Positions 2,689 through 44,009 of a stretch of DNA of 45,294 nt are shown here, in pieces. The notes below the pieces were generated by a model, which did no database searches, was not told where the DNA came from, and saw nothing but the letters and a program-made list of their open reading frames with translations. The position numbers and the translations under genes were made by a program. Source of the stretch: Escherichia phage M01; the sequence record OR061069. One strand, given 5' to 3'. Position 1 is the stretch's first letter. The number at the start of each line of letters is the position of its first letter.

Positions 2689-4159
2689 ATGTTAACTATG
2701 AACGGTCAGAATCAGGGTGTTAAGACAAAACACCGGGAATGGCTGCATCACTTCGATAAATGGCAGAAGGTGCGCCACGCACTGGAGGGCGACCTTATCC
2801 GCTATCTGCGCAACGTCGGGAAGAACGAACCTGACCCCATCTACGCAGCCCAGCGCCAGGAAGAATACGAGAACGGCGCTATCTGCTACAACTTCACTAA
2901 ACGCACCCTGGCCGGGATGGTTGGTAGCGTCATGCGCAAAGACCCCGAACAGATTATCCCGCCTGAGCTTGAGTACCTGTTACGTAACGCCGACGGTTCG
3001 GGTGTAGGGCTGTGGCAGCACGCTCAGGATACTTTGATGGAGATTGACTCAGTAGGTCGTGGCGGGTTGCTGGTGGACGCCCCGGAGACAGCCGCGGCAA
3101 CGGCAGCCGAACAGAATGCGGGACTACTAAACCCGGTCATTGCATTCTATACCACAGAGAACATCATCAACTGGCGACTGACCCGCATCGGTTCAGTGAA
3201 CCGCGTGACGATGGTCGTGCTGCGCGAGGTGTGGGAGTACTCGGAGCCGGGCGCAGAGTTCGAAACCAAGTTCGGTGAGCAGTATCGCGTTCTCGATTTG
3301 ATTGACGGGCGCTACCGCCAGCGCATTTACCGCTTCGATGCCGAAGGTGGTGGCTAATGGTGAAGTAATCGAAATATTCCCGGAACTTGGCGAACAGTTA
3401 CGCGGCAAAATCCCGTTCACGTTCATTGGGGCAAGCAACAACGATGCGACCATCGACGATGCGCCTTTGCTGCCGTTAGCTGAGCTTAATATCGGACATT
3501 TCCGCAACAGCGCGGACAACGAGGAATCCAGCTTCGTTGTAGGGCAGCCCACTCTGTTCATCGCCCCTGGTGAAAACATGAGCATGGAACAGTGGAAAGA
3601 AGCCAACCCTCACGGCGTCCGCACGGGGTCGCGTTCAGGCCACAACATTGGTTACGGCGGCAATGCGTTTCTGGTTCAGGCAGGGGAGAACAACCTCGCC
3701 AAACAGAACATGCTGGATAAAGAGAATCAGGCGATTCAGATTGGTGCGCAGCTTATCACCCCGACGCAGCAAATCACCGCTGAATCGGCCCGTCTGCAAC
3801 GTGGTGCTGATACTTCAGTTATGGCAACAATCGCACGTAACGTAAGCATGGCGTACACTGATGCGCTGCGCTGGGTGGCTGCGATGCTTGGGCTGCGTGA
3901 AGGCACAGAGATTGAGTTCAAGCTGAATATGGAGTTCTTCCTGCAACCGATGACCGCTCAGGACCGTGCTCAGTGGATGGCGGATATTAACGCGGGTCTG
4001 TTACCGGCTACCGCTTATTATGCTGCGTTGCGCAAGGCAGGTGTAACTGACTGGACGGACGAGGACATTCAGAACGCTATTGAGGACGCACCTCTGCCGT
4101 TGGGTGCTGTTACTCAGGTGGCTGGAGAGATTCCGCAGTCGGCGCAACAACAGGAGTAA
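2689..4159 (+). CDS. portal protein, frameshift near 3300-3357
   Basis: about 490 aa across two frames; position after terL. Confidence 0.7.
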
Positions 4160-4165
4160 ATAGAA

Positions 4166-4195
4166 AGGCCCCTTAAGGGGCCTTATCTTTTCTTT
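4166..4195. terminator. bidirectional intrinsic terminator
   Basis: aaggcccc-ttaa-ggggcctt hairpin with flanking T-rich tract; between convergent genes. Confidence 0.6.
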
Positions 4196-4475
4196 ATACA
4201 AATATGAATCCATTGCTGGAAGAGGTGTATCGGGTGGTGCCGTTTTTCGTTTCGGGCCAACAGATATATGAGCGACCATGATACTCTACCCACCAAAGTT
4301 CTACATCGGCATCCCCATTAGGTCGCGTCAACCACCCGTGGTGCAGCCAATACTTGCGCCCTATTTTAAATATGCCTTCTTCGCATGAAGGCCTGCAACA
4401 GGCGACGCACTCTACTTGAACACCATCAACATGCACACATGTCATATGTAAATTACTGTTTGAATATTTAGCCAT
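4194..4475 (-). CDS. Cys-rich hypothetical protein (possible zinc-binding), moron-like
   Basis: 93 aa minus-strand ORF inside plus-strand late operon; RBS aaggaa; TATAAT 4521-4526 on minus strand upstream. Confidence 0.45.
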   Translation of the reverse strand: MAKYSNSNLHMTCVHVDGVQVECVACCRPSCEEGIFKIGRKYWLHHGWLTRPNGDADVELWWVEYHGRSYICWPETKNGTTRYTSSSNGFIFV

Positions 4476-4508
4476 TTCTAAATTCCTTATCTCTCGTTTT
4501 GATGTAAT

Positions 4509-4533
4509 GAATAGTACCCTATTATATTGGTGT
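4509..4533. promoter_or_regulatory. conserved 25-bp element copy A (gaatagtaccctattatattggtgt)
   Basis: near-identical to 6259-6283 and 16027-16051; IR aatag-tacc-ctatt; minus-strand reading gives TATAAT. Confidence 0.55.
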
Positions 4534-4583
4534 CTGCAAATATTATTTTTATGCGTTACACTGTCTATACTACAGGAGGGCTT

Positions 4584-5631
4584 ATGAGCTTACTTACATC
4601 CCTAATCAGCCACCAGATATGGCTACAACGCGCCGCATCCGGTGAAGTGAAAGACCTCGCACCGTTTATTAAGGAGATGCGGGACGAAATCAAACGGCAG
4701 GTGCTGTTATTCGGCGACGACGGGCGAAGCACTGCGCGACTGAATAAACTGTTACGCGACCTCGAAGAAGCACTGACAGGGCTTACAGGTGACTGGCAAA
4801 CAAAGCTGACAGAAGACCTTAAGGAACTGGCGGCGTATGAGGCGGAGTGGAACGTAAAGGCACTGACCGCCAACGTAGACGCGGAGTTTGTTACACCTAC
4901 CGCCGAACAGGTGTGGGCTGCTGCCGAGTTTCAACCGCTCTCATTGAGCGACAAGCCTGTTGATTTCTCTAAGCTGATGACCGGCTGGGGCGAAACAGAA
5001 GTCGAGCGCCTGGTAACCGGCGTTAAGATGGGCTTTGTACAAGGCCAAACCACACGGCAGATTGTTAAGAATGTCGTAGGCGCTGGCGGACTGGCCGACG
5101 TCTCTGAGCGTAACGCCGCTACCGTCATCCGCACCGCGCTGTCCCACGTGTCTAACGAAGCCCGTAACGAGACGTACCGCCAGAACGAAGACATCATCGA
5201 GAAGTACGAGTGGGTGTCGACGCTAGACAGCCGTACCAGTACGATTTGCAGAGCCAGAGACGGAATGACGTGGGAAATCGGTAAAGGGCCGATGCCGCCA
5301 GCCCATCCGAACTGCCGAAGTACGTGCACTGCACCTGTAATCAGTTCAGAGTTCGATTTCCTGGATAAAGGTGCAAAGCGAGCGGCTAAAGGTGCGGACG
5401 GCGGTACTCAGGTAAGCGCAGACACCACCTATTACGAGTTCCTGAAGCAACAACCGTCGTGGTTTCATCGATGAAGCGCTCGGCCCGGTGCGAGGCAAGA
5501 TTTTCCGTAACAGCGGTATATCACCGGAAGAGTTTCGCGTAATATCTGTAGATGGTTTCGGGAATCCGCTGACGCTTAAGCAGATGGCGGAACTCGATAA
5601 ACGTGTTGCTGATTATCTGAAAGGGGAATAA
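4584..5631 (+). CDS. head morphogenesis protein (SPP1 gp7 / Mu F-like), frameshift near 5460-5475
   Basis: RBS aggaggg before ATG 4584; C-terminal part continues in another frame to TAA 5629-5631. Confidence 0.65.
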
Positions 5632-6091
5632 TGATGGGCTTTTCAAAGTAACTGATGTACCGTCACGTCGCGTAGTCCAGTTTGCTCGTGTGTCAGGCTC
5701 CGGTGAGAACGTGGTGTCTATTGGGGATGAAAGTGTACTGGGTACGCCGGTAGATGATATGCCGTTTGCAGATAAAACCGGTATTGCGTTACCCGCGGCG
5801 GGCATGCTTTATGAGATTCCGTATCTGGCGGACGCTGGCGATGTGTATTTCTCTGTGCAACCGAAAGACGCTGAACTGGTTGACGGCAGCGCGACTATCA
5901 CTGTCGAAGTTAAGGCAGGTAAAGCGCCGTATACGCTGACCTGGTACAAAGACGGTAAGGAAGTAGTAAACGCCCCGGAAGAGGCTTTGTCTCTGACGGT
6001 TAACGCGGTGGGTGAATACTTCGTTAAAGTCACCGATGCCGATGGAGTAGAGGCGGTAAGTAAAGCGGCGAAGGTTACGAAGCCAGAATGA
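5631..6091 (+). CDS. Ig-like domain protein (possible capsid decoration); ATG 5631 frame broken at T4 run 5640-5643, alternative GTG start 5690
   Basis: Ig-like motif PYTLTWYKDG; frame 2 open from 5621 with no ATG. Confidence 0.5.
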
Positions 6092-6094
6092 TAA

Positions 6095-6122
6095 AAGGCC
6101 CCACTATGGGGCCTTATTTTTC
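6095..6122. terminator. bidirectional intrinsic terminator
   Basis: aaggcccc-actat-ggggcctt then TTTTT; A-tract upstream. Confidence 0.6.
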
Positions 6123-6258
6123 ATCAAAGTTCACCATTCCCGCTGACTCTGCGTCCTCGACCCGCGCTAACAGCCCACACAAACAATCCTAAATTAACCA
6201 GTAACACAAATGAAATTGCGTACCATCAGTAACTTCACCTCCACTATCACGTTTTACT

Positions 6259-6283
6259 GAATAGTACCCTATTATATTGGTGT
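6259..6283. promoter_or_regulatory. conserved 25-bp element copy B
   Basis: identical 25-mer; minus-strand TATAAT at 6271-6276. Confidence 0.55.
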
Positions 6284-6336
6284 GCGCAAACTATTTGTTT
6301 ACGTATTCCGGTTATTCCACTCGAATTGTAAATGTT

Positions 6337-6385
6337 GGAATAAACTATTCGAATAGTTGACTTTTCACCAAAAATGTGCTAAGCT
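6337..6385 (+). promoter_or_regulatory. sigma70-like promoter with upstream box (TGTTGGAATAA-N2-TATTC; -35 TTGACT 6357-6362; extended -10 TGcTAAGCT 6377-6385)
   Basis: 17-bp spacer; palindrome ctattcgaatag 6345-6356; same box recurs at 7119-7142. Confidence 0.45.
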
Positions 6386-6563
6386 CCACCTGAGCTTGTG
6401 AAGTATGAACAAGCGACCGCGGCGTGGCAGGTAACGGAGCCGGACGTTAAGTCCGAGTGTAGTTACGCTGACGCGTTCGGAAGGGCCATACTCTATTGCT
6501 TGTGTAAAAAGTAACTGGGTTTACTGAGATTACGCCGTTTCTATGTTTAAATGATAAGGACTA

Positions 6564-6590
6564 GCGCCCCGCTTTAAGGCGGGGCTTTAC
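6564..6590 (+). terminator. intrinsic terminator-like hairpin in leader upstream of Rz
   Basis: stem gccccgc/gcggggc, loop tttaag, then tttacttat. Confidence 0.4.
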
Positions 6591-6609
6591 TTATCGAGAA
6601 AGGGGAAAC

Positions 6610-7019
6610 ATGAATCTTAAAGCAACTGTCGTAGCAGGAGCATGTTTCATCATCCTGGCTTACGCACACGGCATCTACCAGTACCGCAGCTGGCTGGAAC
6701 GAAGGCCAGCGCGAATCTCGTTTCGCAGCAACAGCAGAAAGCACAGGCTGAGTTAGCGAAGAAAACACAACGGCAGCAGCAGGACGAATCAAAGGCCGCC
6801 GCCGCTGACAACGAAGGCAAGACGAAATCAGAGGTGATTACCCGTGAAGTCGTTAAGTACATTAAAACGCCTGGTCGCAGCGTGTGCACTTTTGACGATG
6901 CTCGCGTCCTGCTCAAGTCCCGCGCCGTCGCCAACGCCAATTCCATCTCCGGATACGACGATGATGCAGCCACCGTGCAAGCTGGCGCACGCCAAGTAGT
7001 GACGCGGACGAGGACTTAG
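6610..7019 (+). CDS. Rz: i-spanin (Rz-like), frameshift near 6700-6756
   Basis: N-terminal TM segment then Q/A/K-rich periplasmic domain; lipoprotein ORF embedded in +1 frame. Confidence 0.55.
6844..6999 (+). CDS. Rz1: o-spanin (Rz1-like) lipoprotein embedded in +1 frame of Rz
   Basis: GTG start; signal peptide with lipobox LASC; Pro-rich mature part with C-terminal Cys. Confidence 0.6.
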   Translation: MKSLSTLKRLVAACALLTMLASCSSPAPSPTPIPSPDTTMMQPPCKLAHAK

Positions 7020-7092
7020 CTATTGACGTTCAGAACGCCGAATGCGTGCGGCAACTGCGTCTGAAAGTGTTCATGTTGCAGGACTACGTGAG

Positions 7093-7165
7093 GAATATTC
7101 TGGAATAGTTGCCTTGCATGTTGGAATAATTTATTCTTGACATGTAAATCCGGGTGGCCCGGATT
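7093..7165 (+). promoter_or_regulatory. upstream regulatory region of scaffold/capsid operon (second GGAATAA-N2-TATTC box, TTGACA 7137-7142, 8-bp hairpin 7146-7165)
   Basis: box shared with 6337-6362; no clear -10 found. Confidence 0.3.
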
Positions 7166-7190
7166 CCAACGTCCAGGGGACATACTGACT

Positions 7191-7892
7191 ATGAATCGTT
7201 TTTTACGTTATCCGTTCCAGGAAGAAGCTGGAGCAGAAGATAAAGCCGGTGGCGGTGACGCGCCGAAAATGTTCACAGCCGAAGAAGTTCAGGCGCTGAT
7301 TGAGAAAGAAGTTGCCGGGCTTAAGGCCAATCAGGAAGCATTGCTGGCGGAGAAGAAAGAAGCCGCTCGCAAAGCAAAAGAGGCTGAAGAAGAACGGCAG
7401 CGCGCACACCAGGAGGCGTTAAAAGCCGCTGGTAAGATGGACGAGTTTGAAAAGACGATTCGTAGCCAGTATGACCCGGTGTTAGCCGAGAAAGATGGTC
7501 GCATCTCCAAAATGGCAGAGCGCATCCTCGGCAGCGAACGTAAAGCGGTGTTAGGCTCTTTCGCGGGTGACTTCATCACCCCGGAAGCAGTGGACATTCT
7601 TGCGCCGTTCGTCAAGACTGAGTTCGAAGGCGATGATGTGGTTACTAAGTTTGTCGGCGCAGACGGCAACGTAATCACGACTGACCCGGAACAGTTCCGC
7701 AAATACCTGCGCGAACACAAAGCGTTTTCGCATTTGATTAAAGCAAATGCAGCTTCCGGCGGCGGGGCTTCCGGTAGCAAAGGCGGCGGGGCCGCACCAG
7801 CGTTTAAAGACATGAGTGAAGCGGAGCGTTTAGCTCTGTATAAATCGAACCCTGCCGAATTTGAGCGGCAACTTAAAGCCCTGAGGAAATAA
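7191..7892 (+). CDS. scaffolding protein (putative)
   Basis: charged coiled-coil-like sequence immediately before major capsid gene. Confidence 0.55.
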   Translation: MNRFLRYPFQEEAGAEDKAGGGDAPKMFTAEEVQALIEKEVAGLKANQEALLAEKKEAARKAKEAEEERQRAHQEALKAAGKMDEFEKTIRSQYDPVLAEKDGRISKMAERILGSERKAVLGSFAGDFITPEAVDILAPFVKTEFEGDDVVTKFVGADGNVITTDPEQFRKYLREHKAFSHLIKANAASGGGASGSKGGGAAPAFKDMSEAERLALYKSNPAEFERQLKALRK

Positions 7893-7894
7893 TA

Positions 7895-8946
7895 ATGGCA
7901 ATTACCACTATCGGCGATATCGTAACTGGCAACATCCCGGTCCTGGCGTCTTACATGACCGAGGACCCGGTAGAAAAAACCGCGTTCTTCCAGTCTGGTA
8001 TTCTGACCCCGACTCCATACGCTGCCGAGATTGCCCGCGGCTCGTCCAACATCGCTAACATCCCTTTCTGGAAAGCGATTGATACTTCTATTGAGCCTAA
8101 CTACTCGAACGACGTATACCAGGACATCGCAACCCCGCGTAACGTGCAGACCGGCGAGATGATGGCGCGCGTTGCATACCTGAACGAAGGCTTCGGCCAG
8201 GCAGACCTGACTGTAGAACTGACCAGTCAGAATCCGCTGCAATCCGTAGCGTCCCGTCTGGATAACTTCTGGCAGCGCCAGGCGCAACGCCGTCTGATTG
8301 CTACCGCGCTCGGTCTGTACAACGACAACGTAGCCGCTGACCGATGAATACCATACGCAGAACGATATGGTTGTCGACGTGTCCTGCTTCTCTGGGCTTC
8401 GACGCTGGCGCATTCATCGACGCTACCCAGACTATGGGCGATGCGCTGATGGGCAACGGCGGTGAAGTGCTGGGCGCTATCGCGATGCACAGCTTCGTTT
8501 ATGCGCAGGCGCGTAAGCAGCAGCTTATCGACTTCATCAAAGATGCTGACAACGACACCCTGTTCGCCACCTACCAGGGCTACCGCGTGATTGTTGACGA
8601 CAGCATGACCGTAGTTGGCTCCGGCTCGAGCCGTAAGTTCATCTCCATCATCTTCGGCAACGGCGCTATCGGTTACGGTGAAGGTAATCCGTCCAACCCG
8701 CTGGAATACGAGCGCGAAGCATCTCGCGGTAACGGCGGCGGTGTCGAAACCCTGTGGACCCGTAAGACCTGGTTGCTGCACCCACTGGGCTACAGCTTCA
8801 CCAGTGCGGTAATCACCGGCAACGGCACCGAGACTGTAGCCCGCTCTGCTTCCTGGCAGGACCTGGCGAACGCCTCCAACTGGAACCGCGTTGTTGAACG
8901 TAAGCACGTACCGATTGCCTTCCTGGTAACTGGTGTTGGTGCTTAA
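7895..8946 (+). CDS. major capsid protein, frameshift near 8340
   Basis: about 350 aa across two frames; follows scaffold; terminator hairpin after. Confidence 0.65.
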
Positions 8947-8962
8947 GGTTAAGCTTATAATC

Positions 8963-8993
8963 GAGAGGGACTTCGGTCCCTATTTTCATTTAT
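8963..8993 (+). terminator. intrinsic terminator after capsid gene
   Basis: agggac-ttcg-gtccct then T-rich tract. Confidence 0.45.
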
Positions 8994-9008
8994 TAAGAGG
9001 ATTCCTTA

Positions 9009-9351
9009 ATGGCAGACGTATTGAAACGACGCATCACCGGCGTCTCCGCTGACGCCCCGGGTGCTAAGATTGATATGGCGACTATTTCTCCTGCGTCTTT
9101 CTCTACCCCACTTAACGCTACTACCTAGGTTGCCGCCGGACGAGACTATGACCCTGACCGTCGCAGTAACTGGCGGTCTGGAGCCATATTCCTATCAGTG
9201 GTACAAGAACAACAACGCCATCACAGGAGCAAACGCTGCCTCCTATGCTAAAGCGTCGACCACTACCGCCGATTCTGGCACGTATAAAGTGGTTGTTCAC
9301 GATGTGTATGGTAATATTATCTCCAGCAGCACTGTAGCAACTGTGTCTTAA
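9009..9351 (+). CDS. Ig-like domain protein; N-terminal 39-aa ORF (frame 3) joins Ig-domain frame near 9120, alternative ATG 9148
   Basis: motif PYSYQWYKNN paralogous to 5690-6091. Confidence 0.4.
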
Positions 9352-16000: not shown

Positions 16001-16026
16001 AATTATTTCCTCAGTAAGTTACAGGT

Positions 16027-16051
16027 GAATAGTACCCTATTATATTGGGGT
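16027..16051. promoter_or_regulatory. conserved 25-bp element copy C; minus-strand promoter of the 13439-16000 cassette
   Basis: minus-strand TATAAT about 40 nt upstream of ATG 16000. Confidence 0.55.
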
Positions 16052-16164
16052 GCGCAAGTAGTGTGTTAGAATAAGTTTGCGCCTAGTGTCGCACACGAAA
16101 AGCGGGTGGTTCCCGTCTGGCGCGTCAACCTTAACTTGTAACCTCTTAACCAAAGGATTAAATA

Positions 16165-32376: not shown

Positions 32377-32405
32377 AATATAATAGCTAACTATTCAGGT
32401 GTCAA
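32377..32405 (-). promoter_or_regulatory. sigma70 promoter with IR in spacer (-35 TTGACA, 17 bp, -10 TATATT)
   Basis: IR aatag-ctaa-ctatt; upstream of SSB gene. Confidence 0.55.
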
Positions 32406-33898: not shown

Positions 33899-34243
33899 CG
33901 TAAACTCTCCAAATACAAGTTTAATGCCTGTAACTGTTCTTCTGTGGGAATGAAAGAATCATCGCGGTGTAAGTCGCTTAACTGTTGCAACATTCCTGCG
34001 AACTTACGTCTTGCGTCGACAGCGACCATGTGATGCTTTTCACTTTTGTATATTAATGTTTTCGGGTAATCCCTCAAGCCTGCCAGACGATTTATTCACT
34101 CGGAGCGCCCGAGCTTCATGCGCAATGTGTATGTACTTTTTACCGTTTTGTAGCACAGTAGCTACACCGCTGTTCTTTCTGCGGTCGCCGACGGTATAAA
34201 CTTTGTCGCCGCTGCGCAAATTAAGCCACCATTTATCAGTCAT
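33895..34243 (-). CDS. hypothetical protein, frameshift near 34050
   Basis: two overlapping ORFs in adjacent frames; ATGA overlaps. Confidence 0.3.
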
Positions 34244-34512
34244 GCTCTGTTCTCCCACTGGTCAATTAAATGTCTGGTCTTATGGTCGCAGTGCATAGCC
34301 CACCCATACATCGACTCGAAGACATAAAAGTCAGGTTTGGCGAATGTCGTGCGCTTAATCTGCGACACGTGACGGCCTATATCTTTAGGCCGCGGTACTT
34401 TGCCTAAGTACGCCATCTCTTCCATCTGGTGCGCACCCGACGGCGCACGCAACAGCCACAGAGCCTCTGTGTTATCCCGCCTGTCCACGGCAAGGTAGAG
34501 TTGGTAAATCAT
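34240..34512 (-). CDS. hypothetical protein (90 aa)
   Basis: ORF track. Confidence 0.4.
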   Translation of the reverse strand: MIYQLYLAVDRRDNTEALWLLRAPSGAHQMEEMAYLGKVPRPKDIGRHVSQIKRTTFAKPDFYVFESMYGWAMHCDHKTRHLIDQWENRA

Positions 34513-35646: not shown

Positions 35647-35862
35647 ATGCAACCATCTGAACTAGGCATTCGTGTAGAACAACGCCGTAAAGAACTCGGC
35701 ATCTCACAGCGCCGTCTGGCTGTCCTGGCCGGCGTTTCCCAGGGTGCGATTAACCAGCTCGCACTCGGGGTAACTCAGGACGTCCGCCCGGCAACGCTGT
35801 TTAAACTGGCGGAAGTGCTGCAAGTAGACGCCAAGTGGCTGGCGTTCGGTGAAGGGGCTTAA
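35647..35862 (+). CDS. XRE-family HTH transcriptional regulator (Cro/CI-like, 71 aa)
   Basis: HTH QRRLAVLAGVSQGAINQL; flanked by operator-like repeats. Confidence 0.6.
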   Translation: MQPSELGIRVEQRRKELGISQRRLAVLAGVSQGAINQLALGVTQDVRPATLFKLAEVLQVDAKWLAFGEGA

Positions 35863-38180: not shown

Positions 38181-38413
38181 TTATTCCAGGTCTTCTAAAG
38201 TAGCGGTCATTCCGCGAACTTCGGCAACAGCACTATATTTCCCGCCAACATTTTTCACGACACCAGATTTAACCAGTACCTTCAACGACCCTTCAATAAT
38301 GGCGGAACTATAGTACCTAAAATAACTACGGCGCAAGTCCATAACGCTGCACGACCCTTTTTACAGGTTAATGAAACGACTGCCGTAAATACGCGGGACT
38401 GGAACTCGGTCAT
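38181..38413 (-). CDS. hypothetical protein, probable frameshift; boundaries uncertain
   Basis: good RBS ggagaa; ATGA overlap with upstream HTH gene. Confidence 0.2.
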
Positions 38414-38581
38414 TTTACATTCTCCTTAATCCACGCTTCCACTTTCTCCGGGTCGAAAGTACCCGGCTGCCGGCGGCCCATAATACGGATACAACAATCC
38501 GGGAACTTCCCACTCTTTAACCAGTTATTCAGCGTGCGGCGAGTAACCCCGATACGCTCAGCTACTTCATTCTGTGTCATT
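38410..38581 (-). CDS. HTH DNA-binding protein (excisionase/MerR-like fold)
   Basis: motif TQNEVAERIGVTRRTLNNW. Confidence 0.5.
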
Positions 38582-38608
38582 CTCAAACCCCCATTATCAG
38601 TTAACGAA

Positions 38609-38640
38609 ACCAAGTATACATTGCGAATAATGGGAAATCA
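38609..38640 (-). promoter_or_regulatory. sigma70-like promoter (-35 TTGATT, 17 bp, -10 TATACT) for HTH/primase-helicase operon
   Basis: read on minus strand. Confidence 0.4.
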
Positions 38641-38657
38641 AACATAATCGCACCTAT

Positions 38658-38955
38658 TGACATTATGAAAATCTTCGTTTAAGGTGCTTCTGTATCTTAG
38701 TTACTTTGATTCCTGTTCACCTTGTAAGAATGTTTAACCGAAAACGTGCGTCAACGCAAAGTGTTAAGCGACAGGCTTACTGAACATTCGAGAATTATCG
38801 TAACTTTCCTTCCTAAGTATCTCCGGTTGCCCTGGGCAAGCTCTATTCTCATCGGCAGCATATCTCTTAAGTATCTGATTTTCTTAAAGTGCCGTAGATT
38901 CGCAACCGTAAAAATGTAACGATTATTGGGCAGGCTTAGGGCCTGCCCTTTAGTT
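38658..38955 (+). other. noncoding region: plus-strand promoter-like TTGACA 38658-38663, direct repeats TAAGTATCT (38814-38822, 38868-38876), terminator 38928-38955
   Basis: no ORF of 60 aa or more; adjacent to replication genes. Confidence 0.3.
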
Positions 38956-39042
38956 ACCAAGTAATAAGAATAAAGGCACAACCCTACCTGAAGAATCACA
39001 ACGGCAACGTAACCATTTTCAATGAATCTCTTGCACACCCCA

Positions 39043-39068
39043 ACATAATAGGATACTATTCACTTATC
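39043..39068 (+). promoter_or_regulatory. promoter with IR copy (-10 CATAAT, aatag-gata-ctatt)
   Basis: same architecture as copies A-C; upstream of ATG 39094. Confidence 0.45.
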
Positions 39069-39093
39069 GAAACGAGACATAAGGAATTCAGAA

Positions 39094-39312
39094 ATGAACA
39101 AAGCGACTGCAAGCGTGGTTTCCGCAATCAGAGAAGTTTACGGCATCGATATTTCAGAGCGCGTAATTATCGGGAACAAACGCAACTTCTTTACGTTCGA
39201 CACCGACGGAATGGATGAAAATGATTTTATTAACGTACAACGTTTCGCCATCGGTAAAGGGCTCCGTAACGAGCCTGCAGGTTACAAGAAATTCGCTATC
39301 TACTTTAAATAA
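39094..39312 (+). CDS. hypothetical protein (72 aa)
   Basis: RBS aaggaa; ORF track. Confidence 0.4.
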   Translation: MNKATASVVSAIREVYGIDISERVIIGNKRNFFTFDTDGMDENDFINVQRFAIGKGLRNEPAGYKKFAIYFK

Positions 39313-42968: not shown

Positions 42969-43278
42969 TTGGATAAATTTACTGAAACAGTGACGGGGTG
43001 GCTTCTGGCTGCCGCACTAGCTGGTGGGGTAATCGGACTAAGACAACATAAGTCCATTATTTCTGGCCCTATCGATGGCTTCTGCTTTATTGCAACCGGC
43101 TTCACCTGCGCAGTATTTGGCGCGCCTCTCGCAGCTCAATGGTTTGGAATCACGGGCGACCGTGAAATCGCCGGGCCTGGGCTTCATTATCGCTATTCTC
43201 TGGATGCCTATCTATTCCCGCCTCTCTGGCATCGTCGCCGGAGAATACATCGCACGTCGAGGAGGCCCGGATGAATGA
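42969..43278 (+). CDS. holin (three TM segments), TTG start, frameshift near 43170
   Basis: RBS ggagga; hydrophobic segments in two frames; directly upstream of endolysin. Confidence 0.5.
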
Positions 43279-43543
43279 GCTATTCTGGTTCGGCGGTATG
43301 CTGGCAATCGGAGGCACATCGCTGTTTAATGTGTATCACCCCAGCGTGAACGACGGGCTGTTTGGTCGGGTGCTCTATATCCTGACCGCTATCGTCTGCG
43401 CCGCCGGATGTATCCACCTGTTACAGGGCAGCATGTCACCAACGTTGCCGGAGACATTAATCACATTAGTTGCGCTGCGTCAGATTCGTCAGGCGTGGCT
43501 GTCATACGGAGGATATAAGCGTGTCTCGAAACATTTCAGATAA
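43271..43543 (+). CDS. membrane protein (second holin / antiholin candidate)
   Basis: two hydrophobic segments. Confidence 0.4.
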   Translation: MNELFWFGGMLAIGGTSLFNVYHPSVNDGLFGRVLYILTAIVCAAGCIHLLQGSMSPTLPETLITLVALRQIRQAWLSYGGYKRVSKHFR

Positions 43544-44009
43544 CGGACTGCATTTCACCGCCGCGTTTGAGGGATTTCCGTGGAACTGCGTATCGTGCTA
43601 CGCCTGAACGAGAAGTACCTGACTATAGGCTACGGTCACTACGGACCAGACGTAACACCAGGTAAGACCATCACACCAGGACAGGGCTTGCTGTTACTGA
43701 ATCGCGATATGGCTAAGGCTGTAGCTGCTGTTGACGCAGCAGCACACCATTCACTGACACAGGCACAGTTCGATGCGGTGTGTGACCTGGTGTATAACGC
43801 CGGTGCTGGCGTGATTGCCGTCTACTACGGGCACAGGCAAGGCACTGCGCTCAGGAGATATTGCAACACTGCGTGCCAAGCTGGCGCTGTTCATCAACCA
43901 GAACGGCAAGCCGTTACTCGGCCTGCGTCGCCGTACAGCCGGACGTCTGGCGCTGTTCGACGGTAAACCGTGGCAAGAGGCTGAGGCGATTGGGAGGGCT
44001 GTTAAATGA
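43521..44009 (+). CDS. endolysin (GH24 lysozyme-like), frameshifts near 43570 and 43830
   Basis: LTIGYGHYG and DAVCDLVYNAGAG motifs across frames. Confidence 0.65.

Follow-up and report, generated by a model that had tools for sequence, protein, structure and literature searches.

How does Escherichia phage M01 (sequence record OR061069) control its spanin genes, Rz and Rz1, which stand behind a promoter, some 220 nucleotides (nt) of untranslated leader and a GC-rich hairpin? To approach this question we analysed the whole stretch of 45,294 nt, hereafter called the window, which is a complete phage genome of the Kagunavirus type (Guernseyvirinae). A sequence-only reading of the locus had compared it to the PR'/6S RNA/tR' arrangement by which lambda uses Q antitermination for its late genes, naming a stand-alone small RNA (sRNA) or a riboregulated leader as alternatives. 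The last of these fits best, with covarying stems and a predicted helix that would bury the ribosome-binding site (RBS) region of Rz. We put it at about even chances that the region combines a regulated promoter with a cis-acting, two-part leader of the Rz/Rz1 unit, which would attenuate transcription and occlude translation. Coordinates are those of the window; the promoter, the RNA elements and the spanin genes described below all lie on the + strand.

For comparison we collected 58 related loci via the scaffold protein and more via DNA patterns, and refer to three lineages: A, the Kagunavirus type that includes the window; B, the Jersey type; and C, a more distant group. Over about 180 phage records the leader region is 93-98% identical, and among 28 lineage A loci its mean identity of 97.4% exceeds that of the spanin genes (92.4%) and of the scaffold gene (94.4%). 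The leader has also been swapped independently of its neighbours, as loci L033, L042 and L043 combine a near-identical leader with divergent spanins and L008 shows the reverse.

The leader folds with z = -2.5. In an alignment based on R1, a covariance model of the leader, 90.4% of the cells are paired, as against 37-47% when the partners are slid by 1-3 columns, and the observed covariation score was reached by none of 500 shuffles. The covariance analysis that the sequence-only reading had proposed as a check thus shows stems that covary. R1 fits lineage B poorly in P3, P4 and the lower stems, and so understates pairing; many of the cells scored as not paired are alignment artefacts, and folds of the individual sequences were used instead. 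About eight pairs are mainly G.U and would be A.C on the opposite strand, which fixes the RNA strand as +. The leader is a structured, non-coding RNA.

The same reading had described about 200 nt without an open reading frame (ORF). The leader of about 220 nt stands, but a 38-amino-acid (aa) GTG ORF does exist at 6398-6514, and it appears as a 'hypothetical protein' in several GenBank records. That the region encodes this annotated protein of 36-38 aa has next to nothing to recommend it in our view, even though most variants do contain an ORF of 34-43 aa. The GTG frame halts after 19 aa in 23 of about 45 relatives, the variants differ in which frame is open, no convincing Shine-Dalgarno (SD) sequence precedes it, and the substitutions in the stems are compensatory. 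We therefore rejected 6398-6514 as a protein gene, neither frame nor length being conserved among relatives, and regard the annotation inside the leader as spurious.

The leader locus is placed between the head-decoration gene and the spanin genes, and two observations tie it to the latter. The gap between the hairpin and the Rz start codon (ATG 6610, which follows the hairpin as had been described) is 24 nt, too short for another promoter, and so links the leader to the spanins. Furthermore, in lineage C a strong terminator closes the promoter-leader-Rz/Rz1 unit, which is isolated from the scaffold gene; the whole leader thus belongs with the spanins. The SD sequence AAGGGGA and the AUG of the i-spanin gene were read from the sequence at 6600-6612, and this gene begins ATGAAT at every locus of lineages A, B and C, but not at the D/E loci, which are more distant.

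The sigma70-type promoter (6357-6385) has its elements exactly where the sequence-only reading had placed them: a -35 hexamer TTGACT (6357-6362), a 17-bp spacer, TG (6377-6378) and a -10 hexamer TAAGCT (6380-6385), from which transcription would start near 6392-6393. TAAGCT agrees with TATAAT at only three of six positions, and a simple consensus hexamer scan does not return this promoter; it is conservation, not the quality of the match, that makes it credible. Indeed, lineages A, B and C have in common the architecture GGAATA-N3-TATTC, 6 nt, TnGACT, 14 nt, TGn, TA(A/C)(G/C)CT, and the part from TnGACT onward is present in 50 of the 50 promoters matched. The hexamers, the TG and all distances are constant across the three lineages, the spacer sequences are unrelated, and the n of TGn can be any of the four bases. 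A functional extended -10 promoter that has a regulator site centred near -48 would be expected to show this pattern, which supports such an assignment. Automatic annotation in the record of fBC-Eco01 (OM272052.1) had earlier predicted the same 'host promoter' and terminator. That record also annotates a second 'host promoter' inside the leader, corresponding to window positions 6518-6546 (TTTACT-16-TATGTT), which is not conserved in lineage B; transcripts from it, if it is used, would be without the pairing partner of the Rz start region.

Upstream of the promoter lies a palindromic box, GGAATA-AAC-TATTC(G) (6337-6351), presumed to be a regulator-binding site and separated from the -35 hexamer by 6 nt (GAATAG). 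It is preceded by two direct TATTCC half-sites on the + strand (6304-6318; at 6304 and 6313), and ATTCCnGTTATTCC of the half-site region is kept in lineages A, B and C. The recurrence of the box before the scaffold gene, which the sequence-only reading had pointed out, is borne out and conserved: exact GGAATA-N3-TATTC occurs at two sites in 45 kb, 6337-6350 and 7123-7136, the latter within a second cluster of GGAATA boxes (7092-7137). When up to one mismatch is allowed on both strands there are five matches against 0.62 expected, and none of 100 shuffles reaches five. Each of the two palindromes belongs to a set of three GGAATA/TATTCC hexamers within about 45 bp (6304, 6313 and 6337; 7092, 7102 and 7123), and all three lineages retain the scaffold-side cluster, including cases where scaffold gene and spanins are apart. 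This distribution suggests that the spanin and scaffold boxes share one DNA-binding regulator. The phage encodes an HTH_3 protein and an HTH_17 protein; phage HTH proteins map to 35647-35862 and 38410-38613.

The scaffold gene has a further feature of its own. A hairpin, AUCCGGG-UGGC-CCGGAU, lies at 7148-7164, just 5' of the SD sequence (about 7172-7183); it is kept in all five lineages, with basal pairs that covary (AUCC/GGAU, CACC/GGUG, AGCC/GGCU, GACGGG/CCCGUC), and is possibly a translational operator of this gene.

The 5' part of the leader, which we call the 5' module (6394-6487), consists of a terminal hairpin, P1, and a long three-tier arm, P2-P3-P4. It folds with z = -2.9, and its minimum free energy (MFE) structure makes up 58% of the ensemble. 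P1, at the RNA 5' end (6394-6414; GCUUGU/ACAAGC), keeps its pairing in the variants, as GCUUGUG/CGCAAGC in L008 and in the paralogous copies described below, and as UACGCU/AGCGUA in lineage B. The arm (6417-6480) emerges from both folding and covariation and has a conserved bulged C and tandem G.U pairs in P2. All 20 distinct promoter-leader variants listed have the same arm fold, and in a stricter collection 19 of 19 distinct arms, folded alone, gave one nested hairpin. Position 6 of P2 is C-G, U-A or A-U, and positions in P3 and P4 show two to four pair types. The 3' edge of the module is marked by a mostly unpaired conserved stretch, CGGAAGGGCC-N5-CUAUUG (6478-6498), which is invariant or nearly so in lineages A and B and in the paralogs; CGGAAGGG(U/C)C occurs also in lineage C. 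Homology of the 5' part of the lineage C leader to domain 1 is not established, and R1 does not detect that part.

Between the 5' module and the 3' hairpin lies a variable region, HP-b (6488-6524), where a hairpin is predicted in every lineage although its sequence and length differ. P1 (6394-6405) and this variable hairpin (6501-6516) share a direct repeat that changes in step between lineages, being GCUUGUG..AAGUA twice in lineage A, GCUUUCAG twice in lineage B (L035), and CUUGUGAGUUAUC versus CUUGUCUGAGAAUUAUC in L008. Both repeat sites may be bound by one factor, or they may be rivals for a shared partner. We also considered an alternative switch pairing, CGGCG/CGCCG, whose counterpart in the paralogs is CGGAG/CUCCG. 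This idea is retained as no more than speculation, the pairing being about 5 kcal/mol less stable than the MFE structure in the full leader and broken in L100.

The 5' module is not confined to the spanin locus. R1 detects another, diverged copy of it in at least 10 contigs of IMG/VR as well as in additional metagenome contigs. The copied unit extends exactly from the -35 hexamer to CUAUUG, without the palindrome, and it heads a rightward operon whose first gene codes for 72 aa (its window homologue is at 39094) and which continues to the holins and the endolysin. Past CUAUUG these paralogs have a different sequence that ends in another two-tier GC hairpin. The window's own holin-endolysin operon has a different leader of about 400 nt and no 5' module. 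Judged by this distribution of sequences, the 5' module is a portable partner of the core promoter rather than a spanin-specific device. On the minus strand of the window, at 34043-34258, we noticed a gene for a 72-aa protein with a sub-threshold match to the C-terminal domain of phage ProQ-like proteins (E = 0.006; 17.6 bits at a cut-off of 27); if the match is real, this protein would be a candidate RNA-binding partner of structured leaders.

The 3' part of the leader, together with the first codons of Rz, is predicted to form one long interrupted hairpin of six tiers over the i-spanin start (6525-6619; -32.7 kcal/mol, z = -4.34; none of 200 shuffles was as stable). At its base, UGAGAUU (6525-6531) pairs with AAUCUUA (6613-6619, codons 2-3), and CG with the UG of the AUG. 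In the next tiers GUUUCU (6537-6542) pairs with GGAAAC (6604-6609, the spacer between SD and AUG), and UUU with GAA. The upper tiers comprise UGAUAAG (6552-6558) with CUUAUCG (6590-6596), UAG with UUA, and the GC stem. The same tiered layout is predicted from different sequences in lineage B (z = -2.37) and lineage C (z = -3.62). The start would be buried there by GAUUCG/UGAAUU and GUAU/AUAC in lineage B, where the latter replaces GUUUC/GAAAC of lineage A, and by pairing of the SD GGG and the AUG in lineage C. For the spacer GGAAAC the probability of being unpaired is at most 0.08, and a GAUU(A/C) element lies 82-86 nt 5' of the ATG in lineages A and C. From the whole-domain folds and the conserved architecture we infer that the ribosome-binding region of Rz is hidden in the 3' hairpin in all lineages. 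The GC-rich hairpin would thus be the tip of a longer helix, which points to translational control.

This tip is a GC stem-loop, GCCCCGCT-TTAA-GGCGGGGC, at 6566-6585, followed by TTTACTTATC and terminator-like in our scan. Its stem of 8 bp contains seven G-C pairs and one terminal U.G, and its interrupted U-tract, UUUACUUAUC, which brings the element to 6566-6595, has five U in 8 nt (dG = -15.8, T-score 3.0). By the d'Aubenton-Carafa discriminant d, which we used to score terminator strength, it reaches +14, close to the 14.6 of the internal terminator at 4167 and short of the 21-36 of the operon-end terminators. The values elsewhere are low (-3 in lineage B, -39 in lineage C, -28 in a paralog) because the U-tract is missing. 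The GC-rich hairpin terminator of the sequence-only reading has thus been upheld as to its stem, while its U-tract is borderline here and absent in the sister lineages.

The pairs of the GC stem covary, C-G being replaced by G-C in lineage B and by U-A in L012 and L018; on these comparisons the conserved feature is the hairpin, not a terminator. Moreover, the tail UUUACUUAUC is itself paired in a conserved lower stem, which reads GAUAAG/CUUAUC in lineage A, and UAUACG/CGUAUA in lineage B; its counterparts in the paralog and in a second leader of the window are AGAGUAC/GUACUCU and GUAAC/GUUAC, respectively. A conserved stem that pairs the would-be U-tract argues for selection on RNA extending past the putative termination point. 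The GC tip with its short, broken U-tract is most likely a partial attenuator. A two-tier hairpin of the kind found at RNase III sites is predicted in lineages A and B, in the paralog and in the second leader.

These elements can be assembled into a regulated promoter followed by a two-part leader as follows. Host sigma70 RNA polymerase would start near 6392 at the extended -10 promoter, and a DNA-binding factor at the GGAATA-N3-TATTC palindrome, the box that also stands before the scaffold gene, probably sets the timing. The first 100 nt or so would fold into the 5' module, P1 plus P2-P3-P4, which travels with the core promoter as a cassette, and the last 95 nt or so into the long interrupted hairpin. 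At the GC tip a fraction of the polymerases probably stops, leaving a leader RNA of about 200 nt. In the read-through transcripts the base of the hairpin would pair the SD-AUG spacer, the AUG and Rz codons 2-3, which would hold spanin translation down as long as the helix is neither opened nor cut. The helix might be opened by a phage protein, by a ligand that acts via the 5' module, or by RNase III cutting the two-tier hairpin; the last is attractive by analogy with the T7 and lambda N leaders. Possible roles of the 5' module itself are stabilisation of the 5' end, recruitment of a factor or an action on the polymerase.

We also entertain, tentatively and as a less probable extension, that the 5' module is a new ligand- or protein-responsive sensor RNA, a promoter-fused portable cassette that would gate lysis via a hairpin both attenuating transcription and hiding the RBS. 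Two lineages of the subfamily have the module before the spanins, and some phages have it before the holin and endolysin operon as well. If true, this would amount to a dedicated RNA switch that times host lysis.

Several points weigh against the attenuating and occluding leader. The effective phylogenetic depth of the sample is small, about three lineages and a few variants, and shuffle controls of the type used for covariation can also be exceeded by related sequences that have no structure. As a bare duplex, the AGAUU element and the start region pair no more strongly than shuffles, and since both are conserved no covariation signal is possible between them. In lineage B, occlusion is predicted to be weaker in the full-length leader. 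The 5' module also stands before a different operon in at least 10 contigs, a role that such a spanin leader does not cover. Finally, the one Kagunavirus RNA-seq paper resolves gene-level classes only, and the start site and the partial termination in the leader stay inferred.

Besides the protein-coding interpretation dismissed above, three other explanations of the locus must be weighed. The late region of lambda comprises the PR' promoter, the 6S RNA and the tR' terminator, and the antiterminator Q acts there through a binding element between -35 and -10. Transferred to our phage, such late control would mean a constitutive promoter and an efficient terminator, with a Q-type protein that joins the polymerase at the promoter and makes it read through into Rz/Rz1 and the head genes. 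The layout is indeed equal, with a promoter, about 200 nt of untranslated RNA, a GC hairpin, lysis genes and then head genes; the hairpin, with d = +14, scores in this lineage as an intrinsic terminator of moderate strength; and NinH, NinX and NinZ-like genes, typical of lambdoid nin regions, occur elsewhere in the phage genome. However, no Q-family protein was found among the small proteins scanned with Pfam (30) and PHROGs (20) or in the curated annotation of the related phage Snoke, although a functional analogue without homology to Q is conceivable. The conserved box lies upstream of the -35 hexamer, where Q would not have it, and the spacer between -35 and -10 is not conserved. The only early -10-like, potentially pause-inducing hexamer, AAGTAT (about +9 to +14), is a weak one that lineage B lacks, and the U-tract fails in both sister lineages, as their negative d values attest. 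R1 has no match in the lambda Q-PR'-S late region. A Q mechanism, furthermore, needs no strong covariation in the leader, whereas the leader here has covarying stems and a hairpin that runs into the ribosome-binding region. We consider the lambda analogy of the sequence-only reading very improbable.

A protein-free variant of antitermination takes account of the portability of the 5' module. In phage HK022, putL and putR are cis-acting antiterminator RNAs that head two operons and require no dedicated protein; by the same token, the 5' module could bind polymerase in cis and carry it past the leader hairpin and later terminators. The module does come directly after the start site and has two stem-loop units, and core promoter and module move together as a cassette. 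As with putL and putR, two operons are headed by it in at least 10 related contigs, though not in the window, and hairpins or terminators follow in both operons. Yet a search of the whole HK022 genome with R1, filters off, returned only generic hairpins (best E = 0.54), and thus no homology. The window's second operon has no module, the second copy being optional among close relatives, and the downstream hairpins are weak terminators in most lineages, so that little antitermination would be needed. All this leaves a put-type mechanism decidedly unlikely. Somewhat easier to entertain, but still unlikely, is a stable trans-acting sRNA of about 200 nt whose 3' end would arise at the hairpin, through termination or processing, while the spanins are expressed by leakage. 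Its own promoter, a terminator-like 3' hairpin, very high conservation and conserved unpaired motifs all suit an sRNA, and low read-through would suit spanins. Hfq-dependent sRNAs, however, carry a long U-tail, whereas the tail here is short and interrupted, and the U-tract is absent in lineages B and C. Complementarity to CGGAAGGGCC in the phage genome, where alone trans targets were sought, is at chance level. The 3' arm of the lower stem and the pairing with the start codon lie beyond the putative 3' end and so indicate selection on the read-through RNA, and the paralogous copies have no nearby terminator.

The window contains a second long leader. At 38658-39093 a promoter-like TTGACA-17-TAAGGT is followed by about 400 nt of untranslated sequence before the first gene of the holin/endolysin operon. 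Within it, an AGAUUC motif and a two-tier hairpin, GUAAC-GGGCAGGC-UUAG-GGCCUGCCC-UUUA-GUUAC (38886-38958, + strand), give a weak R1 match (13.4 bits, E = 0.11). The two-tier GC hairpin itself (38923-38958) resembles the 3' module of the spanin leader, and in at least 10 related contigs the 5' part of this second leader is replaced by the spanin-leader 5' module. We take 38886-38958 as weak indication of a related feature, not as proof.

The i-spanin gene (Rz; 6610-7019) was identified by its match to PHROG phrog_2536 (E = 1e-40), and the o-spanin gene (Rz1; 6844-6999; phrog_1267, E = 5e-5) is embedded in it. The spanins are followed by the scaffold gene (7191) and then the major capsid gene, while the holins and the endolysin are distant, at 42969-43966. 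In the window the i-spanin gene is frameshifted (6610-6756 and 6642-7019). Compared with close relatives, the major capsid gene (7895-8946) and many replication genes are likewise split, and these frameshifts are most likely homopolymer errors of the source assembly. The leader carries two window-specific 1-base indels, an extra G near 6516-6518 and a base missing after 6425. The closest public record is that of Escherichia phage vB_Eco_AMO_3701M (PQ474795.1), which over window positions 3600-9120 has equal length, no indels and 341 substitutions, mainly at third codon positions; three of these fall in the leader (6560, 6577 and 6604) and none in 6610-7115. Given this number of substitutions, the window is not identical to PQ474795.1.

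On the other side of the locus, a bidirectional terminator (6095-6115) closes the decoration gene. Between it and a three-copy repeat many relatives have one or more leftward genes (960-1481 in L003), which encode a sliding-clamp-like protein in Snoke and are two small genes in fBC-Eco01; at the corresponding place (6116-6254) the window has only about 140 nt of non-coding DNA, common to phage K1H. The repeat, TGAATAGTACCCTATTATATTGG, occurs at 6255-6301, 4505-4551 and 16023-16069, contains an AATAG-N6-CTATT palindrome and a minus-strand TATAAT, and sits each time at a junction of leftward and rightward genes. Related copies are found at 32381, 35558 and 35602. The repeat fits the 'phage promoter' consensus given for fBC-Eco01 (PMC9825357). 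It is probably an operator or a leftward promoter, not a promoter for a phage RNA polymerase, because the close relative Snoke has no annotated phage RNA polymerase.

The leader RNA appears to be restricted to these phages. Searched against the 4227 families of Rfam 15, the window and six related loci gave no match at gathering thresholds and only chance-level ones at E <= 10, and a tRNA/tmRNA scan found none. A search of 5,426 E. coli genomes yielded no homologue, and true homologues of the leader occurred only on Guernseyvirinae-like contigs of about 44 kb. Loose DNA-pattern matches in IMG/VR and GC-rich metagenome matches had no R1 match and were discarded as noise. Our literature search found no paper describing this leader RNA. 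While structured regulatory leaders before lysis genes are of a known kind, neither Rfam nor the papers that could be searched describe this RNA, its multi-tier hairpin or its portable module fused to the promoter.

Kagunavirus and Jerseyvirus phages are among the commonest E. coli and Salmonella isolates for therapy and biocontrol, and their regulation is essentially unstudied. The leader surpasses the neighbouring genes in conservation, is exchanged as a module and probably sets the timing and amount of spanin. It is a concrete RNA candidate for Rfam and offers a handle on the control of late genes and lysis outside the lambda Q paradigm. The compact cassette of promoter plus leader could also serve phage engineering.

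Beyond lambda and HK022, three known kinds of system invite comparison. Like riboswitch-type leaders, the RNA has a conserved structured domain with covarying stems around conserved junctions and, downstream, a predicted expression platform in the form of a terminator-like, SD-occluding hairpin; it differs from the known ones in matching none of the 4227 Rfam families. The RNase III sites of T7, of the R1.1 type, have an upper stem, an asymmetric internal loop and a lower stem. The two-tier hairpin of the spanin leader, with its 17-20 bp and an asymmetric loop of 7 nt on the 5' side and 4 nt on the 3' side, is built similarly, lies likewise between an upstream RNA and the RBS of the next gene, and has a layout found again in the genome's second leader. 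The sequences are not similar, and the resemblance to R1.1 is architectural only.

Leaders that hide an RBS, finally, are found in early transcripts of the phage T4 lysozyme gene e, in the Mu mom leader, which is opened by Com, and in the lambda N leader, which is cut by RNase III. The spanin leader resembles them in that pairing is predicted for the spacer, the AUG and the first codons of a lysis gene, so that an opening event would be needed. What sets it apart is that its helix of about 95 nt is multi-tiered, bears a terminator-like tip and is preceded by a separate conserved RNA module.

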